From Gammaproteobacteria bacterium HGW-Gammaproteobacteria-3 (GTDB lineage Bacteria > Pseudomonadota > Gammaproteobacteria > Methylococcales > Methylomonadaceae): a stretch of 12,717 bases of DNA. Within the stretch, counting starts at the first letter, position 1; each line of letters begins with the position of its first letter. Below the pieces are notes generated by a model. That model was not told where the DNA came from, ran no database searches, and saw only the letters and a program-made list of their open reading frames with translations. The DNA is taken from positions 1 through 12,717 of the forward strand of contig PGZD01000079.1 of assembly GCA_002843155.1 (NCBI GenBank), in the 5' to 3' direction. Shown piece after piece: positions 2,453-12,605 of this stretch. Position numbers and translations under genes: made by a program.

Positions 2453-4771
2453 ATGCCCGATACTTCTAAGAATAGTGGGGAAAACCGAGCGCCGATCCAG
2501 CTTGAATTGCTTGCGGCTAAAACCCGGCAGACGCTCAACTGCACGTTTAACCAGGCCTGTCGGCTGGGCAGTGCCAAGAGCAATGATGTTGTTATTGCCG
2601 GGGAAACCATTTCAGCCCATCACGCCAGAATTTTTGTCACCGACGATGGCGCTGTTTTCATTGGCGCCTGCGAGGGCGCCGCAGTTGCCGTCAACGGCAC
2701 GGTCGCCGATAAGCCTTTACTAGTAACCGCCGGCGATTGGGTGCTGTTGGGTTCCACTCCTTTCCAGGTCAAATTTAACAGCATCCCTCAGCCCCTTGTC
2801 GAGGTTGGTGACGCTTCTTCCCAACACATTGATTTATCGGGCAAGTCTGTATTGACCGTAGGTCGATTGCCGCAATGCGATATCGCCATCGCGTCGCCGC
2901 TGATTTCCCGTGAGCACGCCCGTTTGGTCAGGGCGGCGGACGGCTGGTTTATCGAAGATAGCGGCAGCACCAACGGCACTTTCCTCAATGCTGTGCGTGT
3001 TCTGGGCAGGCAAGCGCTAAAAGCCCATGATTGGCTAAGCTTTGCCGCTTTCGAGTATCAATTTGACGGACAGCGCATTATCCCCGGCAATCAAGCCGGG
3101 CAAGTCAATATCGAAGTGTATCGCTTGAGCAAAGAAGTCAGGGACGCATCGGGCCAAACCAAGCGCTTGCTCGATGATCTCAGTTTCGCCATCCGGCCGG
3201 GCGAATTTGTCGGCATTTTCGGCACCAGCGGTTCCGGTAAATCGACTTTGCTGGATGCCCTGAACGGCCGCCGCAGGGCTTCTTCCGGTGATATTTTATA
3301 CAACGGCACCGACTTGTATGGGGCTTTCGATCTGTTTCGCGCAGCCATCGGCTATGTGCCGCAACAAGACATTGTGCATCGTAAAATCATCATGCGCCAT
3401 GCCTTGAAATTTACCGCTAAATTGCGCTTGCCGCCGGACACTTCCGATGTCGAAATGGATGATAATGTGCTCAAGGTGCTGGAAAAAGTGGGGCTGGCAG
3501 AAAAAGCCTCATTGGCGGTGGACACACCTACGCCTTTGAGCGGTGGCCAGTTGAAGCGCGTCAGTCTGGCGGTGGAATTGGTCGCCAATCCCAATGTGCT
3601 GTTTTTGGATGAGGTAACCAGCGGCCTGGATGCCGGTACCGATAAAAAAATGATGCAACTGTTCCGGAGTCTGGCCGAAGACAAGAAAACCGTGATTTGC
3701 GTGACTCACACCCTGGAAAATATCGATACCTGTCATCTGGTGTTATTGCTGCATCAGGGGCGGCTGGTTTTTTTCGGCCCGCCGCAGGCCGTGGTCGGCT
3801 ATTTCGGCATGAAGCGTTTGTCCGATGTTTATGAACTGCTCGAAAGTCAGGTGGCTTCTTATTGGGCCGATAAATACCAGGCCTCCAGTTTTTATCACAC
3901 CTATGTCGCGCAGCGCTTGAACTTTTCCGGGCAGCGCACGGACGGCGCGACGCAAACAAACAGTGCACAACCGTCAGGCAAACCCGTTTCGCAAAGCTTG
4001 CGCCAGACCAGAACATTAATATTGCGTTATTGTGAGCTGATGCTGTCGGATCGAAAAAACCTGCTGATATTGGTATTGCAGGCGCCGTTGATTGCCCTGA
4101 TTATCGGTCTGGTGTTCGAAATGGACGCGCAATTGGCATTGCGGGCGGCCAAACAAAGTCAGATTCTCTTTATTCTGGTTTTATCGGCAATCTGGTTCGG
4201 ATGCCTGAATTCGGCGCGGGAACTGGTCAAGGAACTGCCGATTTATATCCGTGAACGCTCGGTCAATTTAGGTCTCGGGCCTTACATTGCCAGTAAACTG
4301 ATACCGTTATCGTTGCTTTGTTTACTGCAATGTCTATTATTGTTGGGTGTCATTGCCCTGTTGATCGACGTGCCGGGCAATTTTCCACAGCGCTTGTTGA
4401 TTTTGTTCGCATCGGGCATGGCGGCCACGACCATGGGTCTTTGCGTCAGCGCCTTTGTCAATTCCAATGACAAGGCCGTTGCCACCGTACCGATACTGCT
4501 GATTCCGCAGGTGATTCTGTCCGGCGCCGTGGTAACGCTTGAAGGCGCGGGGCTTTGGATAGCCAAGTTGAGCATGATTTCGTATTGGTCTTTTGATGCG
4601 ATGAAAGCGACGCTCAGCGAAGAAGTCAGAGCCGTCAAGGATTTTACCGGGAAAGCGCTGGTGCCCATTGCCGGAAGTTTTGGTCTGGATTTATTGGCGA
4701 TTGCCGCACTGGGGCTGTTTTTTCTGTTGGCAACAGGCATCGGGCTTAAACTCAAGGATACTAAAAAATGA
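2453..4771 (+). CDS. Tandem-FHA ABC transporter: two N-terminal FHA domains fused to an ABC ATPase (NBD) and a C-terminal ABC-2/ABCG-type six-helix membrane domain (half-transporter)
   Basis: FHA1 lies at about nt 2558-2776 (GETISAHHARIF...GDWVLLGSTPFQVKF). FHA2 lies at about nt 2850-3070 (LTVGRLPQCDIAIASPLISREHARL...GSTNGTFLN). Walker A GTSGSGKS is at 3221-3244. The ABC signature is LSGGQLKRVSLAVEL and Walker B is VLFLDEVTSGLD. A Ser/Thr-rich linker RTDGATQTNSAQPSGKPVSQS separates the NBD and TMD. Hydrophobic helices run from about nt 3990 to 4760. The probable start is ATG 2453 (AAGG 9 nt upstream); the track ORF begins at an in-frame TTG at 2435. Confidence 0.9.
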   Translation: MPDTSKNSGENRAPIQLELLAAKTRQTLNCTFNQACRLGSAKSNDVVIAGETISAHHARIFVTDDGAVFIGACEGAAVAVNGTVADKPLLVTAGDWVLLGSTPFQVKFNSIPQPLVEVGDASSQHIDLSGKSVLTVGRLPQCDIAIASPLISREHARLVRAADGWFIEDSGSTNGTFLNAVRVLGRQALKAHDWLSFAAFEYQFDGQRIIPGNQAGQVNIEVYRLSKEVRDASGQTKRLLDDLSFAIRPGEFVGIFGTSGSGKSTLLDALNGRRRASSGDILYNGTDLYGAFDLFRAAIGYVPQQDIVHRKIIMRHALKFTAKLRLPPDTSDVEMDDNVLKVLEKVGLAEKASLAVDTPTPLSGGQLKRVSLAVELVANPNVLFLDEVTSGLDAGTDKKMMQLFRSLAEDKKTVICVTHTLENIDTCHLVLLLHQGRLVFFGPPQAVVGYFGMKRLSDVYELLESQVASYWADKYQASSFYHTYVAQRLNFSGQRTDGATQTNSAQPSGKPVSQSLRQTRTLILRYCELMLSDRKNLLILVLQAPLIALIIGLVFEMDAQLALRAAKQSQILFILVLSAIWFGCLNSARELVKELPIYIRERSVNLGLGPYIASKLIPLSLLCLLQCLLLLGVIALLIDVPGNFPQRLLILFASGMAATTMGLCVSAFVNSNDKAVATVPILLIPQVILSGAVVTLEGAGLWIAKLSMISYWSFDAMKATLSEEVRAVKDFTGKALVPIAGSFGLDLLAIAALGLFFLLATGIGLKLKDTKK

Positions 4772-4793: not shown

Positions 4794-6338
4794 ATGAACG
4801 AAACCCTAGCGGAAGCCAGTCGCACCTGCCCTAAATGCGGCCATCGGGACGCGACCGAAAAAATAGAGGCGCATAAATACCGCTGTTCGGGATGTGAATA
4901 TGAAATGGCGCATATCGATACCGCGCCTAATGGCGCTATCCGGGGCATTTTCGGTTGGTTGAAAACGGTCGATGAGGTGATCGATTCACGTTATAAAATC
5001 CAGATGGTGCTGGGCAAAGGCGGGTTCGGCGCGACTTATCTGGTTGAAGATCAGCGCGTCAGCGGCAAACGCTGGGCGCTCAAGGAAATTCCGGAAATGC
5101 TCTTCGATGAATACGAAGTGTCGCTGCTGAGCGGCCTGGATCATCCTTCGATTCCGATTATCGTTGATCGTTTCAACGAAAATGGCATGGTGTATCTGGT
5201 ACTGAAATTCGGCGGCAGCCGCACGCTCGCCACGGAATGTAAACAACACAACAGAATCGTTTTTCCGAAGCTCAAAAACTGGGCTATCCAGATAGCCGAA
5301 GTGCTTGGCTATCTGCATTCACGAAATCCGCCGATCATTCACAGGGATTTAAAGCCGGAAAATGTCTTGCTCGATGATGAAGATCGCATCATGCTGATCG
5401 ATTTCGGTATCGCCAAGGAAGCATCACCTACCGAAATGACCCGCACATTAGGCCGCGCGGCTTCCATCGGCTTCAGTCCGCCGGAGCAGGTGATGGGCAC
5501 GGGCACCGACATACGCTCCGATATTTATTCCCTCGCGGCTACCGTTTATTTTGCCGCGACCGGCCAGACGCCTGTCGCCGCGCATGAACGTGTGTCCGGC
5601 AAAGCGCTGATAGAACCCAAACAGATTGCCACCGAATTACCCGATGCCGTCAATGCGATGCTGTTGAAAGGGCTCAACCTCAATGTCAACGAACGCCCGC
5701 AAACGGTTGCGGAATTTATCGGCGTTTTCAGTGATGACCTGCCGTCGGCGACTGAGGCGATGTTGTCCGGCAAAACCGTGCAAATCTCGGAGCTTCAATT
5801 CGGTCCGGTTATCAAGACGGCATTGAATCCTTCGACGCCGCTGACCCGGATGAATTCCGCCGCTGTCCACGCTGAAAAAAAAGCGGGTCTGAAGTTCGGT
5901 TTGATTATCGGAGCTGTTATGCTTCTGGCCGCTATGACTGGTGGCGCTTATTGGCTGTTAAATAAAGATGAAACGGCAACGCCACTGCAAGAGGTCGCCA
6001 GCCCGGAAGCGCAAACACCGCCCGTAAGCCCGGCGCAACCTCAACTGGCGACTGTTGACACGCAATCGCCCAAAGCCGCTGCAACGGGCGGGGACGGAGC
6101 GGATAACGCCGGACTCTCGGCCATGGACATTTTAAACAAGCGCAGACAAACGCAGGCGGAGCCGAAGCCGGAACCGGTGGTCAATAAAGCCGCGCAACAG
6201 CTCGATTCGACACGGACGGCACAAAAAACCGTAGTGCCGAAACCAAAATCCAAGCCTAAACCGGTCGCCAGAGCGAAGTCCAAGGAAGATAATTCAGGTT
6301 GGGTGATTATTCCGGGCCAAACCCAAAAAATACGCTGA
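4794..6338 (+). CDS. Hanks-type Ser/Thr protein kinase with N-terminal C4 zinc ribbon, single TM helix and Pro/Lys/Ala-rich low-complexity C-terminal tail
   Basis: The zinc ribbon is CPKCGH-x16-CSGCEY. Kinase motifs are the Gly loop GKGGFG, WALKEI (VAIK lysine), HRDLKPENVLL, DFG and SPPE (APE-like), spanning about nt 4990-5700. The hydrophobic segment LKFGLIIGAVMLLAAMTGGAYWLL is at about nt 5890-5960. The tail has PKPEP/KPKSKPKPVARAKSK repeats. The ATG at 4794 lies 22 nt after the upstream stop. The longer track ORF from 4668 overlaps the ABC gene and is rejected. Confidence 0.9.
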   Translation: MNETLAEASRTCPKCGHRDATEKIEAHKYRCSGCEYEMAHIDTAPNGAIRGIFGWLKTVDEVIDSRYKIQMVLGKGGFGATYLVEDQRVSGKRWALKEIPEMLFDEYEVSLLSGLDHPSIPIIVDRFNENGMVYLVLKFGGSRTLATECKQHNRIVFPKLKNWAIQIAEVLGYLHSRNPPIIHRDLKPENVLLDDEDRIMLIDFGIAKEASPTEMTRTLGRAASIGFSPPEQVMGTGTDIRSDIYSLAATVYFAATGQTPVAAHERVSGKALIEPKQIATELPDAVNAMLLKGLNLNVNERPQTVAEFIGVFSDDLPSATEAMLSGKTVQISELQFGPVIKTALNPSTPLTRMNSAAVHAEKKAGLKFGLIIGAVMLLAAMTGGAYWLLNKDETATPLQEVASPEAQTPPVSPAQPQLATVDTQSPKAAATGGDGADNAGLSAMDILNKRRQTQAEPKPEPVVNKAAQQLDSTRTAQKTVVPKPKSKPKPVARAKSKEDNSGWVIIPGQTQKIR

Positions 6339-6450: not shown

Positions 6451-7614
6451 ATGATTATGCGTTTCAAACAAAGGCTGTCGGCTGCAAATACAGGAGGCAG
6501 AGGAGTGGGCGCCGGGTTGTTGACGGTGCTGATTCTGGTTCAGGCCGTGCTGTTTTCGACGGCGGCGAATGCCGGAGGCTACGGCTCTGCGGCACTGGGC
6601 AGTTATGGGGTAAAAGTATACCGGGTCAATTCAGCCCTGTATCCTTTTGTCCAGCTTTATATCAGGACTTTCGATCAAAATATGCAGCCGTTGGTAAATC
6701 TCAACGAACTGAACATCGGTCTGATGATTAAAGGCAAGTCCTATGATCCGACTAAACGCCAATACGGCATTCAAACCTTGCGTCGGCGCAGTGAGGCGAC
6801 GCGTTCCGTATTGGTGCTCGATGCCAGTAAATCCATGGTGGGACCTGCGTTTGAAACGGCTTTGCGGGCGGCGGCCCGCTTTATCGACAGCAAGCGGCCA
6901 CAGGATGAAGTCGCGGTACTCGCCATTCGCGATACCAAGGAGGGCTATGAACTGGTGTCGGAATTCGAACGTGATAGCGGCGCTTTGGCAAGAAGGCTCG
7001 CCGATATTAAAGTCGATGGCATGAACAGCCGTATTTACGATTCCGTCGGAGCAAGCATACAAATGTGCGGCATGTCCTCGCAAGGTTCTTCCGTCGATCC
7101 TTCGGCCGATAATTTTATCGCCTCGTGTTCGATCGTGGTCTTTTCCGATGGTCGGGATGAGGGCAGTGCGCTGTCACGCGAAGAGCTGAATGCAAGGATT
7201 ACCGCGTTGCCGATTCCCGTTCCGGTTTATTCGCTGGCCTATGGCGCTAATTCCGTTCAATATTTCAGAAACCTGGAATCCATTTCCAAAAATTCATTCG
7301 GTATCTATTATTCGTTGGGTGAAACCTATGACCGAATGCAGCGTGTCGTCGAAGAAATCCAGAATATTCTGCAAAGCGACTATGTCGTGACTTTCCGTTC
7401 CTATCTTCCGGTTGACGGCGAGCAGCACGCTTTTAAAGTGGGCGTTGAATACCCCACCGGCAGCGGAAAATATTACTATGACAAAGGCGAATTCGAAGCG
7501 ATAGAGCCGCCGCCCATTCAAGCAATTGATAATGCCCTGCAACTGCTGGAACAAAAAATTCCGGCCTTAGCGGACAACGACCCCTATTACAAAAGACCGG
7601 CGCCGGGTCAATAG
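6451..7614 (+). CDS. Secreted von Willebrand factor type A (VWA) domain protein with intact MIDAS motif
   Basis: A strong RBS GAGGGGG lies 6 nt upstream of ATG 6451. The N-terminus MIMRFKQRLSAANTGGRGVGAGLLTVLILVQAVLFSTAANA is signal-peptide-like. The VWA fold spans about nt 6810-7240, with MIDAS D-A-S-K-S (LVLDASKSM) and downstream T and D (VVFSDGRDEG). The C-terminal region of about 120 aa has no obvious family. Confidence 0.85.
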   Translation: MIMRFKQRLSAANTGGRGVGAGLLTVLILVQAVLFSTAANAGGYGSAALGSYGVKVYRVNSALYPFVQLYIRTFDQNMQPLVNLNELNIGLMIKGKSYDPTKRQYGIQTLRRRSEATRSVLVLDASKSMVGPAFETALRAAARFIDSKRPQDEVAVLAIRDTKEGYELVSEFERDSGALARRLADIKVDGMNSRIYDSVGASIQMCGMSSQGSSVDPSADNFIASCSIVVFSDGRDEGSALSREELNARITALPIPVPVYSLAYGANSVQYFRNLESISKNSFGIYYSLGETYDRMQRVVEEIQNILQSDYVVTFRSYLPVDGEQHAFKVGVEYPTGSGKYYYDKGEFEAIEPPPIQAIDNALQLLEQKIPALADNDPYYKRPAPGQ

Positions 7615-7638: not shown

Positions 7639-8256
7639 ATGAATCAACAATTGGCAAGAACAACGGTGAGCGCGATCATTTGCGCGAGTTTGCTCACCGG
7701 TTGCGCAACTACACAGGAAAACCAGCAAGCCTGGGGAGCCGGGTTGGGCGCGATTACCGCCGGATTGGCCACGGGATTGGCCACCGGTAATGTCGGTTAC
7801 GGGATTGCCGCTGCGGTAGGCGGCGCGGCCATCGGATGGGGCGCGGTCAAGCTGGCGCAATATAACTCCGAACAGGTGCGCAGCGCTTCTCAGGACCAGG
7901 CCTTGTATGGTTTCACGCCTTCATCGAACGCGACGCTGGTCAAACTACACAAAGGTACGGCGTCTCCCGATACGGTAGCGCCCGGACAGCAGGTGCAAAT
8001 TGCCAGCGATTATTCGTTAGCGGTTCCTGAAGCTCAAAATATGACAGCGGTGCAGGAAAGCTGGACCCTAAAAAAAGATGGTCAAGTTCTTTTTCAGGCC
8101 GACCCGCAGAATGTACAGCGGACAGCCGGGGGGTATGCCGTCAATGCTACCATCCCGATACCCAAAAACGCTTCGGCCGGTACCTATGTCGTTGAAACCC
8201 GCGTGCAGGCAGGCACCAGCAGTGATTTCAACCAGGCCGTCTTTGTCGTTCAGTAA
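7639..8256 (+). CDS. Lipoprotein with N-terminal glycine-zipper region (SlyB/17-kDa-antigen-like) and a C-terminal beta-rich domain of unknown function
   Basis: RBS AAGGAG lies 9 nt upstream. The lipobox is LLTGC (SAIICASLLTGCATTQ). The glycine zipper is GAGLGAITAGLATGLATGNVGYGIAAAVGGAAIGWGAV. The gene is 24 nt downstream of the VWA gene. Confidence 0.8.
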   Translation: MNQQLARTTVSAIICASLLTGCATTQENQQAWGAGLGAITAGLATGLATGNVGYGIAAAVGGAAIGWGAVKLAQYNSEQVRSASQDQALYGFTPSSNATLVKLHKGTASPDTVAPGQQVQIASDYSLAVPEAQNMTAVQESWTLKKDGQVLFQADPQNVQRTAGGYAVNATIPIPKNASAGTYVVETRVQAGTSSDFNQAVFVVQ

Positions 8257-8260
8257 CAGG

Positions 8261-8959
8261 GTGTCGTCAGGCGGGCTATGCTTGATGGTCTGCGCATTCG
8301 GTTATGCCGAACCCGCAGACGCCATTTGCGCCGGTGAAGTCAGCCGGTCAATGGCCGCCGCCTTGCGCATTGAGCAGGAATGGCCATTGAGACCGAGTCA
8401 GGACAGTATCACCCGTTATTTGCAAAATCTGGGAGAGCGTTTGCTGCCTCGCGGCGGTTCCTGGTTAAAGTGGCTTAGGGCGGATGACTGGCCGGCTTCC
8501 GGCTGGTTTTTTTTTACCGTTAGGGATCGTGCGATCAATGCGTTTTCCATTGGCAACGGGCGCATTTATCTGACCGACGGCAGTTTTGATTTTGTCGATA
8601 ACGAAGCTGAATTGGCGGCTATCGTTGCTCATGAAATAGGGCATCAACTGGCCGGACATTTCTGCCAAGCCACGGACCGCACCGGTCGTGAACAAAATTC
8701 CCTGGGTTCTCTGGTGCAGGTTGTCGATATCGAAAAAGAAATGGAAGCCGATGCCATTGCGTTGAAACTTTTAAGTTCGGCCGGTTTCCCGCCGCAGGCC
8801 TTACTGAAAATCATCAGCCGCTTACCGCTGACCGGCAATAGCGCGCAGCAGCGTTTAAGATTGGATAAGTTAAACGAAAAACTGCAAGACGCAAATGTTT
8901 CGCCGCTATTTTCCAGTTCCCGGGTGTTTTTACAGCTCAAAAAGTCATTGCCTCGATAA
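8261..8959 (+). CDS. M48-family zinc metallopeptidase (HExxH plus E-x-EAD third ligand; BepA/YcaL/LoiP-like). Start uncertain
   Basis: Motifs are AIVAHEIGHQLAGH (HExxH) and EKEMEADAIALKLL (M48 EMEAD motif). Candidate starts are GTG 8261 (5 nt after the lipoprotein stop, suggesting translational coupling), TTG 8282 or ATG 8285. The track ORF from 8078 overlaps the lipoprotein gene in another frame and is rejected. The N-terminus (LCLMVCAFGYA) is only weakly signal-peptide-like. Confidence 0.75.
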   Translation: MSSGGLCLMVCAFGYAEPADAICAGEVSRSMAAALRIEQEWPLRPSQDSITRYLQNLGERLLPRGGSWLKWLRADDWPASGWFFFTVRDRAINAFSIGNGRIYLTDGSFDFVDNEAELAAIVAHEIGHQLAGHFCQATDRTGREQNSLGSLVQVVDIEKEMEADAIALKLLSSAGFPPQALLKIISRLPLTGNSAQQRLRLDKLNEKLQDANVSPLFSSSRVFLQLKKSLPR

Positions 8960-8978: not shown

Positions 8979-9725
8979 ATGAAATTTAAATTTTTTAAAA
9001 GATCGAGTCAAAAATCATCCTGTCCACTTGTGCAAGTCAGCGCTCTTTCTCATCCGGGACGTGTCCGGGATAATAACGAAGACAGCTTTATACTGTTGCC
9101 CGATTGGGGAGTTTGGGCCATTGCCGACGGCATGGGCGGTCATCAGTGCGGCGAAGTCGCCAGCGCCATCGGCTTGATGGCCTTGCAGCGATCGCTCGTA
9201 GCCGGTGACAATCTGGTGCATTCGATACAAAATGCCCATCAGGCAATCAAAAAGCAAGCCGAGCAGGACACTACAAAAAGTGGCATGGGTACGACGCTGG
9301 TGGCGGTACAAATACACGGGGAAAGTTATCGGGTGGCTTGGGTCGGCGATAGCCGGGCCTATTTATGGCACAATGGCTTGAGGCAATTGACCCGGGATCA
9401 TAGCTATGTGCAAATGCTGCTGGAGCAAGGGCTGATCGATGAGGCCGACGTCCTGACACATCCTTATAAAAATGTCATCACGCAGGCTTTGGGTAGCCTG
9501 GATAAGGAGTCGGTTCAGGTCGAGACGATAGAGGAAAAATGGAAGTCAGGCGCTAACTTGCTGCTGTGCAGCGATGGCTTGAGCAGTCAGTTAAGCGACT
9601 CAGAGATTGCGGCCATTCTGGCAACGGATTGCTGTTTGGAGCAAAAAGCCGGGCAGCTTTTGACACGGGTCTTGGCTAACACGGCTGAAGATAATATCAC
9701 ACTGATCTTATTGGCCTTGCCATGA
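8979..9725 (+). CDS. PP2C-family Ser/Thr protein phosphatase (Stp/PrpC/PppA-like)
   Basis: Motifs are VSALSHPGRVRDNNEDSF, WAIADGMGGHQCGEVAS, GMGTTLVAV, VGDSRAYLW, NVITQALGS and LLCSDGLS, the canonical metal-binding Asp/Gly motifs of bacterial PP2C. The gene is 19 nt downstream of the M48 gene. Confidence 0.9.
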   Translation: MKFKFFKRSSQKSSCPLVQVSALSHPGRVRDNNEDSFILLPDWGVWAIADGMGGHQCGEVASAIGLMALQRSLVAGDNLVHSIQNAHQAIKKQAEQDTTKSGMGTTLVAVQIHGESYRVAWVGDSRAYLWHNGLRQLTRDHSYVQMLLEQGLIDEADVLTHPYKNVITQALGSLDKESVQVETIEEKWKSGANLLLCSDGLSSQLSDSEIAAILATDCCLEQKAGQLLTRVLANTAEDNITLILLALP

Positions 9726-9755: not shown

Positions 9756-10682
9756 TTAAACACATTTCGATATATCCACGCCGGTTTTGTCCAACAGTTC
9801 CCGGCGTAGCTTTTCCGCTTCCGCCACTTTTTGCATCAAGTCCGGTTCCGGACAGTGTTTATCAGTGAAGCGTCTGATACCGCCCGTTTTTCTCTCGTTG
9901 ATAACTTCAACGATGGTCTTCCAGCCAATATCCTTATCATCATTGGCAAAAGCAAACACTAAAGCAAGATCGCATACATTGTTGATCAGTCTGGGTACAC
10001 CGGCGGTGTAATAAAAGATGGCGGCTGACGCCGATTTTTTAAAAATCGGTGTTTGTCTGCCGGCAATGCGCAGTCTGTGCTCGATGTATTGCTCGGTTTC
10101 TTCAAAATTAAGGGGCAAAAGATGATATTCAATGGAAATACGTTGGGCGAACTGTACGAGCTGAGGCTCGTTCAGTTTATCGACCAGTTCGGGTTGTCCG
10201 ACTAAAATCAACTGCAACAGTATTTCTTGCGTTACATTAATGTTGGAGAGCAGCCGGAGTTCTTCCAGTGTTTCGATTTCCATGTTCTGGGCTTCATCGA
10301 CGATCAGGACGACGCGGCGCTTTTTTTGACCTTGTTCGTGGAGAAATTTGACAAAGAGCTGATAACGTTCGGCTTTGTTATTAGTGTTGTGTTCAATATT
10401 GAAAGCCGCCAGAACCCAGGTCAGCAAGTCGCCAAAAGAGCTATGGGTGTTGGTAATGATGCCCACAGTGCACTGTTTTTCAATTTTGTTCAACATGCAG
10501 CGGATTAAAGTGGTCTTGCCTGAACCTATTTCACCGGTAATCACGGTAAAGCCTGCGTGGCTCATAAGTCCGTACTCCAGGGTGGTTAAAGCTTTTCTGT
10601 GTTTAGGGCTTAAAAATAAAAACTCCGGATCGGGAATCAGAGAAAAGGGCTTTTTTTTCAGTCCAAAGAATTGAGTGTACAT
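9756..10682 (-). CDS. ExeA/GspA-family AAA ATPase, short form with cytoplasmic ATPase domain only (MshM / PEP-CTERM-associated ATPase-like)
   Basis: Family signatures are MYTQFFGLKKKPFSLIPDPEFLFLSPKHRKAL, Walker A GEIGSGKTT, Walker B VVLIVDEAQN, ILVGQPEL and AGVPRLINNVCDLAL. No TM segment and no peptidoglycan-binding C-terminal domain are present. I prefer the ATG at 10682 (AAGAGA-like RBS upstream) over the track start at 10700. The gene converges on the PP2C gene across a 30-nt gap. Confidence 0.85.
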   Translation of the reverse strand: MYTQFFGLKKKPFSLIPDPEFLFLSPKHRKALTTLEYGLMSHAGFTVITGEIGSGKTTLIRCMLNKIEKQCTVGIITNTHSSFGDLLTWVLAAFNIEHNTNNKAERYQLFVKFLHEQGQKKRRVVLIVDEAQNMEIETLEELRLLSNINVTQEILLQLILVGQPELVDKLNEPQLVQFAQRISIEYHLLPLNFEETEQYIEHRLRIAGRQTPIFKKSASAAIFYYTAGVPRLINNVCDLALVFAFANDDKDIGWKTIVEVINERKTGGIRRFTDKHCPEPDLMQKVAEAEKLRRELLDKTGVDISKCV

Positions 10683-10934: not shown

Positions 10935-11588
10935 TCATCCAAAAAGTTGCTTTATCAGAGCAGTTACGCTTATCAGCAAATCCTGTTTAGTGTTGTCGAG
11001 TGCGTAGTTATTTTCATAGGTGGAAAAATCTATATTGGCCCGGCTTTGCTTTTTCTTTTTTTGGCTGTGTCGCCGTGCTTGTAATAATTGGCCGCCCGCT
11101 CTTTTCCATTCCATAAGATGAGTGATTTCACCGCTATCGAGCCAGATGCCATGCGCCGGACAACGGTCTATAATAACGCCGCTGCGGTGACCAAAATTAA
11201 TGCGGCTCATGAAGTTTTGGCATACCGGACATTTGATATACTTTGTTTTCTGCTGAGCCTGAAAACGGTCGGCATTGATGTTGACCAGATGTTTGCGGTT
11301 GATAGTGAACGTTGCAGCTACCGAACTTTCCAAAAACCGTTCTATTTCATCTGGATCAAAAAATAAACCGTAACAGCTCCCGCAGCGTTCGATCAAAAAT
11401 TCTTTTTGTGGATCGAGGCTGATAGTTTGTAAAGCTTCATCGCAATGCGGACAGATGCGATTTGAAGCATCGTTGTATAAAGCGTAATCGAACTTGCCGG
11501 TCAGATCAACATCATTGCGCACACCGCAATAACGACATCGATTGGTATTGGCTAAAAGTGGTGCGGAACAACTGTTGCAGCGCGCCAT
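10935..11588 (-). CDS. Zinc-ribbon protein with an N-terminal CxxC..CxxC pair and two zf-TFIIB-type modules (YdjG-like)
   Basis: The N-terminal ribbon is CNSC..CRYC. Module 1 is CPHC..CGSCYGLFFDPDEIE and module 2 is CPVC..IDRCPAHGIWLDSGEITHL, matching the zf-TFIIB pattern CPxC-x(15-20)-CxxCxGxWxDxGE. The C-terminus is basic (KKKKQSR). The start ATG at 11588 lies 3 nt after the stop of the upstream SPFH gene. Confidence 0.8.
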   Translation of the reverse strand: MARCNSCSAPLLANTNRCRYCGVRNDVDLTGKFDYALYNDASNRICPHCDEALQTISLDPQKEFLIERCGSCYGLFFDPDEIERFLESSVAATFTINRKHLVNINADRFQAQQKTKYIKCPVCQNFMSRINFGHRSGVIIDRCPAHGIWLDSGEITHLMEWKRAGGQLLQARRHSQKKKKQSRANIDFSTYENNYALDNTKQDLLISVTALIKQLFG

Positions 11589-11591
11589 GGC

Positions 11592-12605
11592 TCACCAACT
11601 GTCGAGGATGTTTTTTTTCCGGGCACTGTATTCATCAACGGTTATCAATCCGGCATCGTGCATTTTTTTCAATTCGAGCAGTTTTTTCATCAGATCGGTT
11701 GCCTCTTGTCTCGATTCGACCGAAATACCTTTGGATAAGGATTGCGCCATGCTTTGGCCCAAACCCATGCCGGCCCCCATGCCCATGCCTAAACCGGCGC
11801 CACCGCCTTCATTTCGAGCCGCTTCGAGCATTGCTTCAAGTTGCTGCAATTGGGCATAATTAATGCCAACGGCTTGAGCCGCCTGGGCTTCTGCGGTCAG
11901 GTCGGCGATGCGGTTAATGCGTCTTAAAGTATCATCGTCAAACTGGGTGCCTTCAATTCGAAAATCAGTCAGCTTAAAACCCAGCTCGTGAAAAACGCTG
12001 GACAGTTTGTTTTGCATACCGTGTCCGATTTCTTCACGGTTGGCGTCAATATCGGCATAGCTAAATTTATTTTCCGCAAGATAGTCAGCCAGCGGGTGTA
12101 GAATGCGCGCAGACATAATGTTGCGGAAATCTTCGTTATAAAAATCGTTTTGACTACCGACGATGTGGGTAAAAAAATTGATCGCATCCTGAATCCGGTA
12201 GCTGTAATTCCCGAATGCCTTTAAGCCTATGGGAAACCGGTATTTTGGGTCTTCATATTTTATGGTTGAGGTAGTACCCCATTTTTGATCAAGCTGCGTT
12301 GTTTTTTTGAAGAAATAAATGCCGACTTTATGTTCACTTTCAAAAAACTGCATGAATTTTTTGACCGTGGTCCAGAAGGGGATATTAGCCGTATTCAGCT
12401 CAATCAGACCTTCTTCCTGAAGCACGGCTTTTACCTCTCCTTCGTAAACGAAAATACAGCCCTGACCTGGACCTACAATCAGTTTGGAAGCGTTTTTGAT
12501 TTCATCGCCATTCTCCGTCCATCGCTGAAACAATGCGTCGGGATGCGGGCTATGCCATTCAATAACCGAACGAAGTTGTCGTTTGATGCCGTCAAAAAGC
12601 GCCAT
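11592..12605 (-). CDS. SPFH/Band_7_1-family protein with Gly/Met-rich linker and C-terminal SHOCT domain (YdjI-like)
   Basis: The N-terminus MALFDGIKRQLRSVIEWHSPHPDALFQRWTENGDEIKNASKLIVGPGQGCIFV matches the YdjI-type SPFH family signature (VIEW...D.LF.RW...EIKN.SKLIV.PGQ). The linker EGGGAGLGMGMGAGMGLGQS is at nt 11754-11810. The SHOCT-like tail is QEATDLMKKLLELKKMHDAGLITVDEYSARKKNIL. I prefer the ATG at 12605 (GAGG 7-8 nt upstream) over the track start at 12653. Confidence 0.85.
   Translation of the reverse strand: MALFDGIKRQLRSVIEWHSPHPDALFQRWTENGDEIKNASKLIVGPGQGCIFVYEGEVKAVLQEEGLIELNTANIPFWTTVKKFMQFFESEHKVGIYFFKKTTQLDQKWGTTSTIKYEDPKYRFPIGLKAFGNYSYRIQDAINFFTHIVGSQNDFYNEDFRNIMSARILHPLADYLAENKFSYADIDANREEIGHGMQNKLSSVFHELGFKLTDFRIEGTQFDDDTLRRINRIADLTAEAQAAQAVGINYAQLQQLEAMLEAARNEGGGAGLGMGMGAGMGLGQSMAQSLSKGISVESRQEATDLMKKLLELKKMHDAGLITVDEYSARKKNILDSW

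Follow-up and report, generated by a model that had tools for sequence, protein, structure and literature searches.

A conserved gene cassette headed by an FHA-domain ABCG-fold transporter and a membrane Ser/Thr kinase with a conserved juxtamembrane threonine

We analysed a 12,717-nucleotide stretch of DNA (hereafter the window) from Gammaproteobacteria bacterium HGW-Gammaproteobacteria-3, a member of the Methylococcales (contig PGZD01000079.1 of assembly GCA_002843155.1). At 2453..4771 (+) it carries a gene for an ATP-binding cassette (ABC) half-transporter of 772 amino acids (aa) in which two FHA domains precede a nucleotide-binding domain (NBD) and a transmembrane domain (TMD), as judged from the open reading frame, its translation, Pfam matches, an AlphaFold2 model and Foldseek comparisons. 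This gene heads a block of six genes on the same strand, with intergenic gaps of 19-112 nt. A single-pass membrane Hanks Ser/Thr kinase is encoded next (4794..6338, +; 514 aa; Pfam Pkinase, AlphaFold2 model, transmembrane helix), its start lying 22 nt after the transporter stop codon. Then come genes for a periplasmic VWA protein with a signal peptide and a DxSxS metal-binding (MIDAS) motif (6451..7614, +; 387 aa; Pfam VWA_2), a lipoprotein with the lipobox LTGC and a glycine-zipper region (7639..8256, +; 205 aa), a small M48 metalloprotease with the motif HEIGH (about 8285..8959, +; 224 aa; Pfam Peptidase_M48) and a cytoplasmic PP2C Ser/Thr phosphatase (8979..9725, +; 248 aa; Pfam PP2C). The transporter is 100% identical to an annotated protein of a groundwater Gammaproteobacteria metagenome-assembled genome, and the kinase is likewise 100% identical to an annotated protein of a groundwater metagenome-assembled genome.

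In the AlphaFold2 model (mean pLDDT, the per-residue confidence score, 82.9), the transporter has two FHA domains folded as beta-sandwiches, then the NBD and a TMD made of helices, with exactly three disordered segments (aa 1-11, 112-123 and 492-509). FHA1 covers aa 15-107 (2495..2773, +) and FHA2 aa 130-206 (2840..3070, +), with a short disordered linker between them (aa 108-129; 2774..2839, +; pLDDT <50 at aa 112-123). The NBD (aa 216-486; 3098..3910, +) is followed by a second disordered linker (aa 487-511; 3911..3985, +; pLDDT <50 at aa 492-509), by the first membrane-domain helix (aa 512-532; 3986..4048, +; pLDDT 76-87) and by the rest of an ABC-2 or ABCG-like TMD (aa 533-772; 4049..4768, +), which is supported by a Pfam match, hydrophobic segments, high conservation and a structure match. 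Pfam finds two FHA stretches, the precomputed match to the first being marked 'weak', together with ABC_tran at aa 240-390 (E=1e-28) and ABC2_membrane at aa 517-712.

The catalytic motifs of the NBD are intact. In 39 diverse orthologues, Walker A (G257-T265), the signature (L362-Q366) and Walker B with the catalytic glutamate (D386-E387) are invariant, as are the Q-loop and the H-loop histidine H419. An earlier note on this DNA, made by a model from the sequence alone, had described just such an NBD followed by an ABC-2 membrane domain, and the Pfam matches and the invariance of these motifs bear it out. The NBD-before-TMD order with all catalytic motifs intact is that of ABC-2/ABCG-type exporters. 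When the modelled NBD-TMD body was compared with the PDB using Foldseek, the best match was ABCG2 (8bht; E=6e-27, TM-score 0.80 on the target, about 22% identity), with further matches to ABCG25, ABCG5/8 and ABCG1, which points to an ABCG-like three-dimensional fold. Eukaryotic ABCG half-transporters (ABCG2, ABCG1, ABCG5/8, AtABCG25) share this overall fold and domain order, whereas they carry no FHA domains and the protein described here is bacterial. The transporter nonetheless falls outside the curated subfamily TIGR00955 ('pigment precursor permease'), whose model gives it 211.5 bits against a cut-off of 736, and the NCBIfam scan returned no equivalog for the ABC, VWA, lipoprotein or M48 proteins. 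As an ABCG-fold half-transporter it presumably works as a homodimeric exporter. Its first membrane-domain helix carries a conserved RQTxTLxxR motif, with Q518, L522 and R525 invariant and 96% conservation of T521. Gene and architecture are thus real, and nothing out of the ordinary among FHA-ABC transporters. Of greater interest in the locus are a degenerate FHA1, an invariant threonine in the juxtamembrane segment of the kinase and a conserved envelope-spanning cassette.

The two FHA domains, both modelled as beta-sandwiches with a pLDDT of about 85, differ sharply in their binding residues. FHA2 looks by its residues like a canonical phosphothreonine-binding domain; G137, R138, S152, H155, S172, N174 and N179 are invariant in the 39 orthologues, T173 is conserved at 96%, and the domain aligns with both FHA-1 (6ccd) and FHA-2 (6cah) of the mycobacterial transporter Rv1747. 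Where FHA2 has the conserved Gly-Arg pair (G137-R138), FHA1 has G39-S40. Alignment of the two family profiles with hhalign (probability 97.7%) places FHA2 R138 on FHA1 S40 and FHA2 S172-T173-N174 on FHA1 G75-A76-A77, so that the Ser/Thr-x-Asn loop (GSTNGT motif) present in FHA2 is lost in FHA1. Across the family, FHA1 position 40 is Ser in 88/118 orthologues and Arg in 6/118. Of the FHA1 Ser-x-x-His motif the window protein has S54 and H57, whereas position 54 is mostly Leu or Ala in the family and Ser in only 7/118 orthologues. Because the Arg has become Ser and the Ser/Thr-x-Asn loop is gone, the FHA fold of FHA1 is degenerate throughout the family. The phosphothreonine contacts of Rad53 FHA1 are made by two residues, the counterpart of this Arg (Arg-70, which contacts the phosphate) and that of the Ser in Ser-x-x-His (Ser-85, paired there with His-88) (PMC3138270). 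The PDB sequence matches of FHA1 are to kinesin-3 FHA domains only. FHA2 alone of the two domains therefore appears able to read phosphothreonine, as far as the residues indicate. The earlier note had counted two complete FHA domains and had named a loss of the conserved Arg, Ser and Asn residues as grounds for abandoning its proposal of phosphothreonine-FHA gating; both folds are indeed present, but only FHA2 is complete, and the loss is found in FHA1 but not in FHA2.

The linker between the two domains is about 20 aa long and has no Thr in the window protein; it varies in sequence and length among orthologues, which share no conserved Ser or Thr there. FHA2 ends in the consensus F-T-G-E-x-L-E-P, which includes residue 205 of the transporter (3065-3067). 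At this residue 81% of orthologues have Thr, whereas the window protein and its nearest relatives have Asp, which could be a phosphomimetic replacement or could be meaningless.

The earlier note had looked for the phospho-acceptor in a Ser/Thr-rich segment between NBD and TMD, quoting the peptide FSGQRTDGATQTNSAQPSGKPVSQSLRQTRT, which corresponds to aa 491-521 (nt 3923-4015; given in the note as about 3920-3990). The disordered linker proper is aa 487-511, QRLNFSGQRTDGATQTNSAQPSGKP. The last third of the quoted peptide, from V512 on (with S513, S515, T519 and T521), is not linker but belongs to the predicted helix that opens the membrane domain. With 10 Ser or Thr in 31 residues, the peptide is the richest 31-residue window of the transporter, yet 28% of shuffles of the same protein also reach 10/31, and its composition is thus within chance. 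Averaged over 118 orthologues, the Ser plus Thr fraction is 0.22 in this linker and 0.21 in both the N-terminal tail and the inter-FHA linker, compared with 0.11-0.15 in the folded domains. The linker keeps its length (21-29 aa, median 26) and not its sequence. No Thr is positionally conserved in it across the 118 orthologues; at least one is present in 109/118, and 9/118 have none at all. T496, T500 and T502, the only threonines in the linker of the window protein, lack a hydrophobic residue at +3, and the T-x-x-hydrophobic motif, absent here, occurs in 51/118 linkers (0.47 per linker observed vs 0.33 in shuffles). T519 and T521 are less likely as linker phospho-sites, since they lie inside the predicted first TMD helix, in the conserved RQTxTLxxR motif. 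Ordinary Ser/Thr content, a kept length and the lack of a conserved Thr all fit a generic flexible tether of ABCG-type transporters, and this is how the linker is best read. ABCG2 has an unstructured cytoplasmic region (aa 354-367) at the equivalent place, which contains the phospho-site T362 (PMC10608301).

A better candidate for the FHA2 ligand is found in the kinase. The protein consists of a Cys4 Zn-ribbon (aa 9-55), a kinase domain, a juxtamembrane segment (aa 317-362), a transmembrane helix (aa 364-391) and a periplasmic tail. Its catalytic residues K97, HRD (183-185) and DFG (203-205) are invariant, as are T216 and T218 of the activation loop. The juxtamembrane segment is predicted to be disordered (pLDDT <50), as is most of the periplasmic tail. 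Within this otherwise variable juxtamembrane segment stands T328 (codon at 5775..5777, +), the sole invariant kinase residue after R301; it is Thr in 41/42 kinase orthologues from species-representative genomes and in 113/113 aligned protein-database homologues. It lies in an [RK]-T-V-x-[VIL] motif, which in the window kinase reads K-T-V-Q-I, and the +3 position is V, I or L in 33/42 genome orthologues and 106/120 homologues. Mycobacterial FHA domains and kinases both favour a hydrophobic residue at this position relative to the phosphothreonine (PMC3138270).

Seven homologues have no Thr at the position of T328. One is a fragment of 332 aa and the other six are full-length paralogues, all of which follow a gene for a BBP2-like signal-peptide protein of about 405-439 aa instead of an FHA-ABC gene, and none of which has a VWA gene beside it. 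The T328 motif thus goes with having an FHA-ABC partner. From these sequence comparisons, kinase T328 is more likely than the transporter's own linker to be the FHA2 ligand and is our proposed docking site.

Some further features of the kinase can be recorded. The Zn-ribbon cysteines (C12, C15, C31 and C34) are invariant, and the ribbon is folded in the model at a pLDDT of about 90. Two small conserved islands stand out in the periplasmic tail, one formed by S442-A443 and a helix spanning aa 443-451, the other by W503 close to the C-terminus; in some orthologues PKD or FGE-sulfatase domains take the place of the disordered tail. The T328-less kinase and the BBP2-like signal-peptide protein form a smaller related module, which adjoins exopolysaccharide genes (Bac_transf, Poly_export, Wzz, SurA-like) and includes a Gly-zipper lipoprotein and an M48 protease in three cases, and has neither an FHA-ABC nor a VWA gene.

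To see what accompanies the transporter elsewhere, we took a census of 27 species-level loci in which an orthologue of the transporter is followed by 6 kb or more of sequence. The kinase and the VWA protein are each present in 26/27, the lipoprotein and the M48 protease each in 25/27, and PP2C in 10/27; the single locus with no separate kinase reads as a fused open frame. PP2C belongs to the cassette only in Methylococcales and Nitrosomonas, and in Chromatiaceae, Syntrophobacteraceae and the remaining census loci the cassette ends at M48. In three loci listed gene by gene, the flanks are unrelated. The transporter gene hence heads a conserved cassette of FHA-ABC, kinase, VWA, lipoprotein and M48, with PP2C added in some lineages. 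The hosts of the transporter family are Methylococcales, Nitrosomonas, Chromatiaceae, Syntrophobacteraceae and one planctomycete, and the closest cultured relatives of the window transporter (78% identity) are found in Methylotuvimicrobium species, including Methylotuvimicrobium buryatense 5G, and M. buryatense has an orthologous cassette. More distant FHA-ABC genes (34-41% identity, mostly of planctomycetes) adjoin generic kinases and lack the periplasmic set. An exhaustive search of representatives with the FHA1-FHA2 region was dominated by unrelated multi-FHA proteins and was uninformative on how widely the architecture has spread.

The cassette appears to span the cell envelope. In 30/30 orthologues the VWA protein has an N-terminal hydrophobic segment or signal peptide, and its DASKS (DxSxS) motif is conserved; the lipobox cysteine of the lipoprotein is likewise present in 30/30 orthologues, and an orthologue matches Gly-zipper_YMGG. 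M48 orthologues have signal peptides, the HExxH motif and a conserved Cys. Given these signal peptides and the lipobox, all three proteins should act outside the cytoplasm. The kinase is predicted to cross the membrane, with its kinase domain, the FHA domains and PP2C on the cytoplasmic side. The M48 protein of the window as called (ATG at 8285) has no signal peptide, unlike its orthologues; an in-frame GTG at 8261 may be the true start, and with the added residues VSSGGLCL the protein would begin with a short hydrophobic stretch. At 8486-8518 (+), within the coding sequence of M48, a GC-rich hairpin of 10 bp precedes seven consecutive T, an arrangement that resembles a terminator and may be chance. 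The phosphatase scores 213 bits against the NCBIfam Stp1/IreP PP2C model, whose cut-off is 230.

The closest known parallel to the transporter is Rv1747, which shares the N-terminal FHA-FHA, the NBD and a six-helix exporter membrane domain and stands in an operon with the Hanks kinase PknF (PMC3138270); the FHA-FHA-NBD-TMD architecture beside a Hanks kinase is found here too. Our sequence comparison with Rv1747 covered its isolated FHA domains (6ccd and 6cah). In Rv1747, the target threonines of PknF (T150/T208, later T152/T210) lie in a disordered inter-FHA linker of about 100 aa and, once phosphorylated, are bound by FHA-1 as well as FHA-2 (PMC3138270, PMC8339232). Here, by contrast, the inter-FHA linker is too short to be a long acceptor linker and is free of Thr, and the Rv1747 mechanism therefore cannot be transferred as it stands. 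Nor are there two FHA domains that look competent to bind, judging by the degenerate FHA1. The kinase gene lies downstream of the transporter rather than upstream, and the operon adds the periplasmic VWA, lipoprotein and M48 genes and PP2C. The NBD-TMD linker, for its part, was never involved in the Rv1747 mechanism.

The earlier note had proposed gating in the manner of Rv1747, with phosphothreonines in the NBD-TMD linker bound by the FHA domains. Its broader half is well supported, since control of an FHA-bearing exporter by a Ser/Thr kinase fits the Hanks kinase gene 22 nt downstream, the PP2C gene in the operon and the retained binding residues of FHA2. The choice of linker fares worse, with no conserved Thr, ordinary Ser/Thr content, no hydrophobic residue at +3 and the Rv1747 sites lying elsewhere. 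We consider this specific idea weak, because the phospho-site that is read is more likely the conserved threonine of the kinase than one in the transporter's own linker.

The assembly of parts also resembles the TagQRST-PpkA-PppA-Fha1 pathway that controls the H1 type VI secretion system (T6SS) of Pseudomonas aeruginosa, another envelope-spanning set, in which an outer-membrane lipoprotein, one or more periplasmic proteins and an ABC component are combined with a VWA-linked transmembrane Hanks kinase, a PP2C phosphatase and an FHA reader (PMC13584744, PMC3224232), a likeness of component type and predicted location only. A transmembrane Hanks kinase, a PP2C and an FHA reader are encoded together in both. 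PpkA carries its VWA sensor as an extracellular domain (PMC3224232), whereas the VWA protein here is separate and secreted rather than a kinase ectodomain; further, the FHA domains are fused to the ABC protein and an M48 protease is present. No T6SS families were among the Pfam matches of genes within about 10 kb in three loci, and the cassette is hence not part of a T6SS cluster. FHA, VWA, Ser/Thr kinase and phosphatase genes also occur together in Sulfolobus (ArnA/ArnB) and in Deinococcus (DRA0331-0334) (PMC6509490; bioRxiv 10.64898/2026.01.23.701218). In the ArnA/ArnB case the C terminus of the VWA protein is phosphorylated and bound by FHA, while here the VWA protein is secreted and, with a signal peptide in 30/30 orthologues, should be out of reach of a cytoplasmic kinase or FHA domain. 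We accordingly ruled out the VWA protein as a phospho-target of the ArnB kind.

Taking together the observed domain content, the catalytic and binding residues, the predicted topology, the disorder and the conservation of motif and cassette, we infer a mechanism in which T328 would be phosphorylated and then bound by FHA2, with the direction of regulation and the substrate proposed on the same footing. A signal from the envelope or periplasm, handled by the VWA protein, the lipoprotein, the M48 protease and the periplasmic tail of the kinase, would activate the kinase. The kinase would then autophosphorylate, including at the invariant T328 in its disordered juxtamembrane segment (pT-x-x-hydrophobic). 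FHA2 of the transporter would dock on pT328, and this coupling of kinase and transporter would switch transporter activity or assembly; PP2C would reset the system. FHA domains that recruit their cognate kinase have a precedent in Rv1747 and PknF (PMC3138270, PMC8339232). That FHA2 docks on pT328 and so couples the kinase to an ABCG-fold exporter, within an envelope-signalling operon, is a tentative reading, one that we consider plausible and just short of probable.

Several observations weigh against it. PP2C is missing from the cassette in 17/27 loci. The six paralogues without T328 may form one clade, in which case their loss of the residue would be a single evolutionary event and not repeated co-variation. 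The conservation of T328 could also serve some other role, for example a contact with PP2C or a 14-3-3-like protein, or regulation of the kinase itself. The activation-loop residues T216 and T218 are as invariant as T328 and are a possible FHA2 ligand instead. Finally, most linkers of the transporter (109/118 orthologues) retain at least one Thr, which is compatible with position-independent ('fuzzy') multi-site phosphorylation.

The last two points each lead to a different arrangement. If the kinase phosphorylated linker T496, T500 and T502, and possibly T519 or T521, the FHA domains could bind these sites within or between subunits and so gate the transporter. The linker is disordered and accessible in the model, it is the most Ser/Thr-rich window of the transporter, and both the T362 phospho-site in the equivalent loop of ABCG2 (PMC10608301) and the several phosphorylated threonines of Rv1747's own disordered linker (PMC8339232) lend it some credit. 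We nevertheless think it improbable, as no Thr keeps its position and nine orthologues have none, the Ser/Thr content is matched by the other disordered segments and by more than a quarter of shuffles (28%), the T-x-x-hydrophobic motif is missing from the window protein and found in under half of the linkers (51/118), T519 and T521 sit in a predicted helix, and only one FHA domain seems fit to bind phosphothreonine. Alternatively, FHA2 may dock on the phosphorylated activation loop (pT216/pT218), after which the kinase would phosphorylate the transporter or other targets and T328 would have another role. The invariance of both threonines and the low model confidence of aa 210-235, which suggests a flexible loop, speak for this. 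Such threonines are, however, kept in nearly all Hanks kinases, with or without an FHA partner, so that their conservation is non-specific; only T216 fits the motif, being followed by R-T-L (+3 = L) where T218 is followed by L-G-R (+3 = R); and the loss of T328 exactly in those paralogues that have no FHA-ABC neighbour is left unexplained. We regard it as quite improbable.

A third arrangement would reverse the direction of signalling. The ABC protein could be an upstream signalling or mechanotransducing part like TagTS, its ATPase cycle controlling the kinase together with the VWA, lipoprotein and M48 proteins and its FHA domains acting as a tether. The parallel between these parts and TagQRST-PpkA-PppA-Fha1 (PMC13584744, PMC3224232) is what recommends it. 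It has against it that the ABC-2/ABCG-type exporter fold of the membrane domain is strongly conserved, and that the cassette encodes no further protein to serve as a cytoplasmic output. TagS is a permease of another kind, MacB/LolC-like, and the ABC type of TagTS differs from the ABC-2/ABCG type. We hold this arrangement to be very unlikely.

Returning to the docking of FHA2 on T328, a wider picture can be drawn around it, in which the cassette is a self-contained, envelope-spanning threonine-phosphorylation switch, built like the T6SS pathway and having an ABCG-fold exporter as its output. FHA2 would dock on T328, FHA1 would serve as a pseudo-FHA for phospho-independent contacts, and the hosts and the paralogous kinase modules beside exopolysaccharide genes would hint that an envelope lipid or polymer is exported according to the state of the envelope. 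This is more doubtful, and we rate the whole as possible if rather unlikely. Many of the hosts, among them methanotrophs, ammonia oxidisers and purple sulfur bacteria, contain extensive internal membranes and synthesise hopanoids or sterols. On these traits and the ABCG fold, one may speculate that the substrate is a lipid.

To our knowledge, work on ABC transport under FHA control has dealt almost exclusively with Rv1747 of M. tuberculosis. The cassette would represent a different wiring. Of its two FHA domains one apparently works and the other is degenerate, the stretch that joins them is not an acceptor linker, and the docking threonine is likely to be that of the kinase; added to this is a periplasmic set of VWA protein, lipoprotein and protease, in environmentally important Gram-negative bacteria. 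With a residue (T328), a domain (FHA2) and a unit of five to six genes in hand, the questions of what is exported and which signal opens the transporter become directly testable, and Methylotuvimicrobium buryatense is genetically tractable. We found no paper describing the cassette in the literature searched, which was a limited library, and neither PADLOC nor NCBIfam has a defence-system or curated family model that covers it.

Scans of the window for other elements gave little. PADLOC, run on all nine window proteins, returned only generic kinase and ATPase matches and no known defence system. The window had no matches to Rfam (E<=1) or in a tRNA scan, and hence no riboswitch or leader RNA was found upstream of the operon. 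A promoter and terminator scan gave weak consensus matches only, and the argument for an operon rests on the short intergenic gaps.

The remaining genes of the window lie outside the cassette. An AAA_22 ATPase (9756-10682, -) scores 299.6 bits against the model of the XrtA/PEP-CTERM system-associated ATPase (TIGR03015; cut-off 324.5) and may link the neighbourhood to exopolysaccharide export, although it is not conserved beside the cassette elsewhere. It is followed by genes for a double Zn-ribbon protein (10935-11588, -) and an SPFH/Band_7_1 protein (11592-12605, -). In Methylotuvimicrobium genomes, too, a Band_7_1 gene precedes the cassette by about 2-3 kb, and this could be a recurrent neighbour or a coincidence. 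Cyclic-di-GMP genes flank the cassette as well; the window has a divergent EAL-CBS-GGDEF gene (436-2241, -), and in Methylotuvimicrobium a CHASE8-HAMP-GGDEF-EAL gene lies downstream of the PP2C gene.

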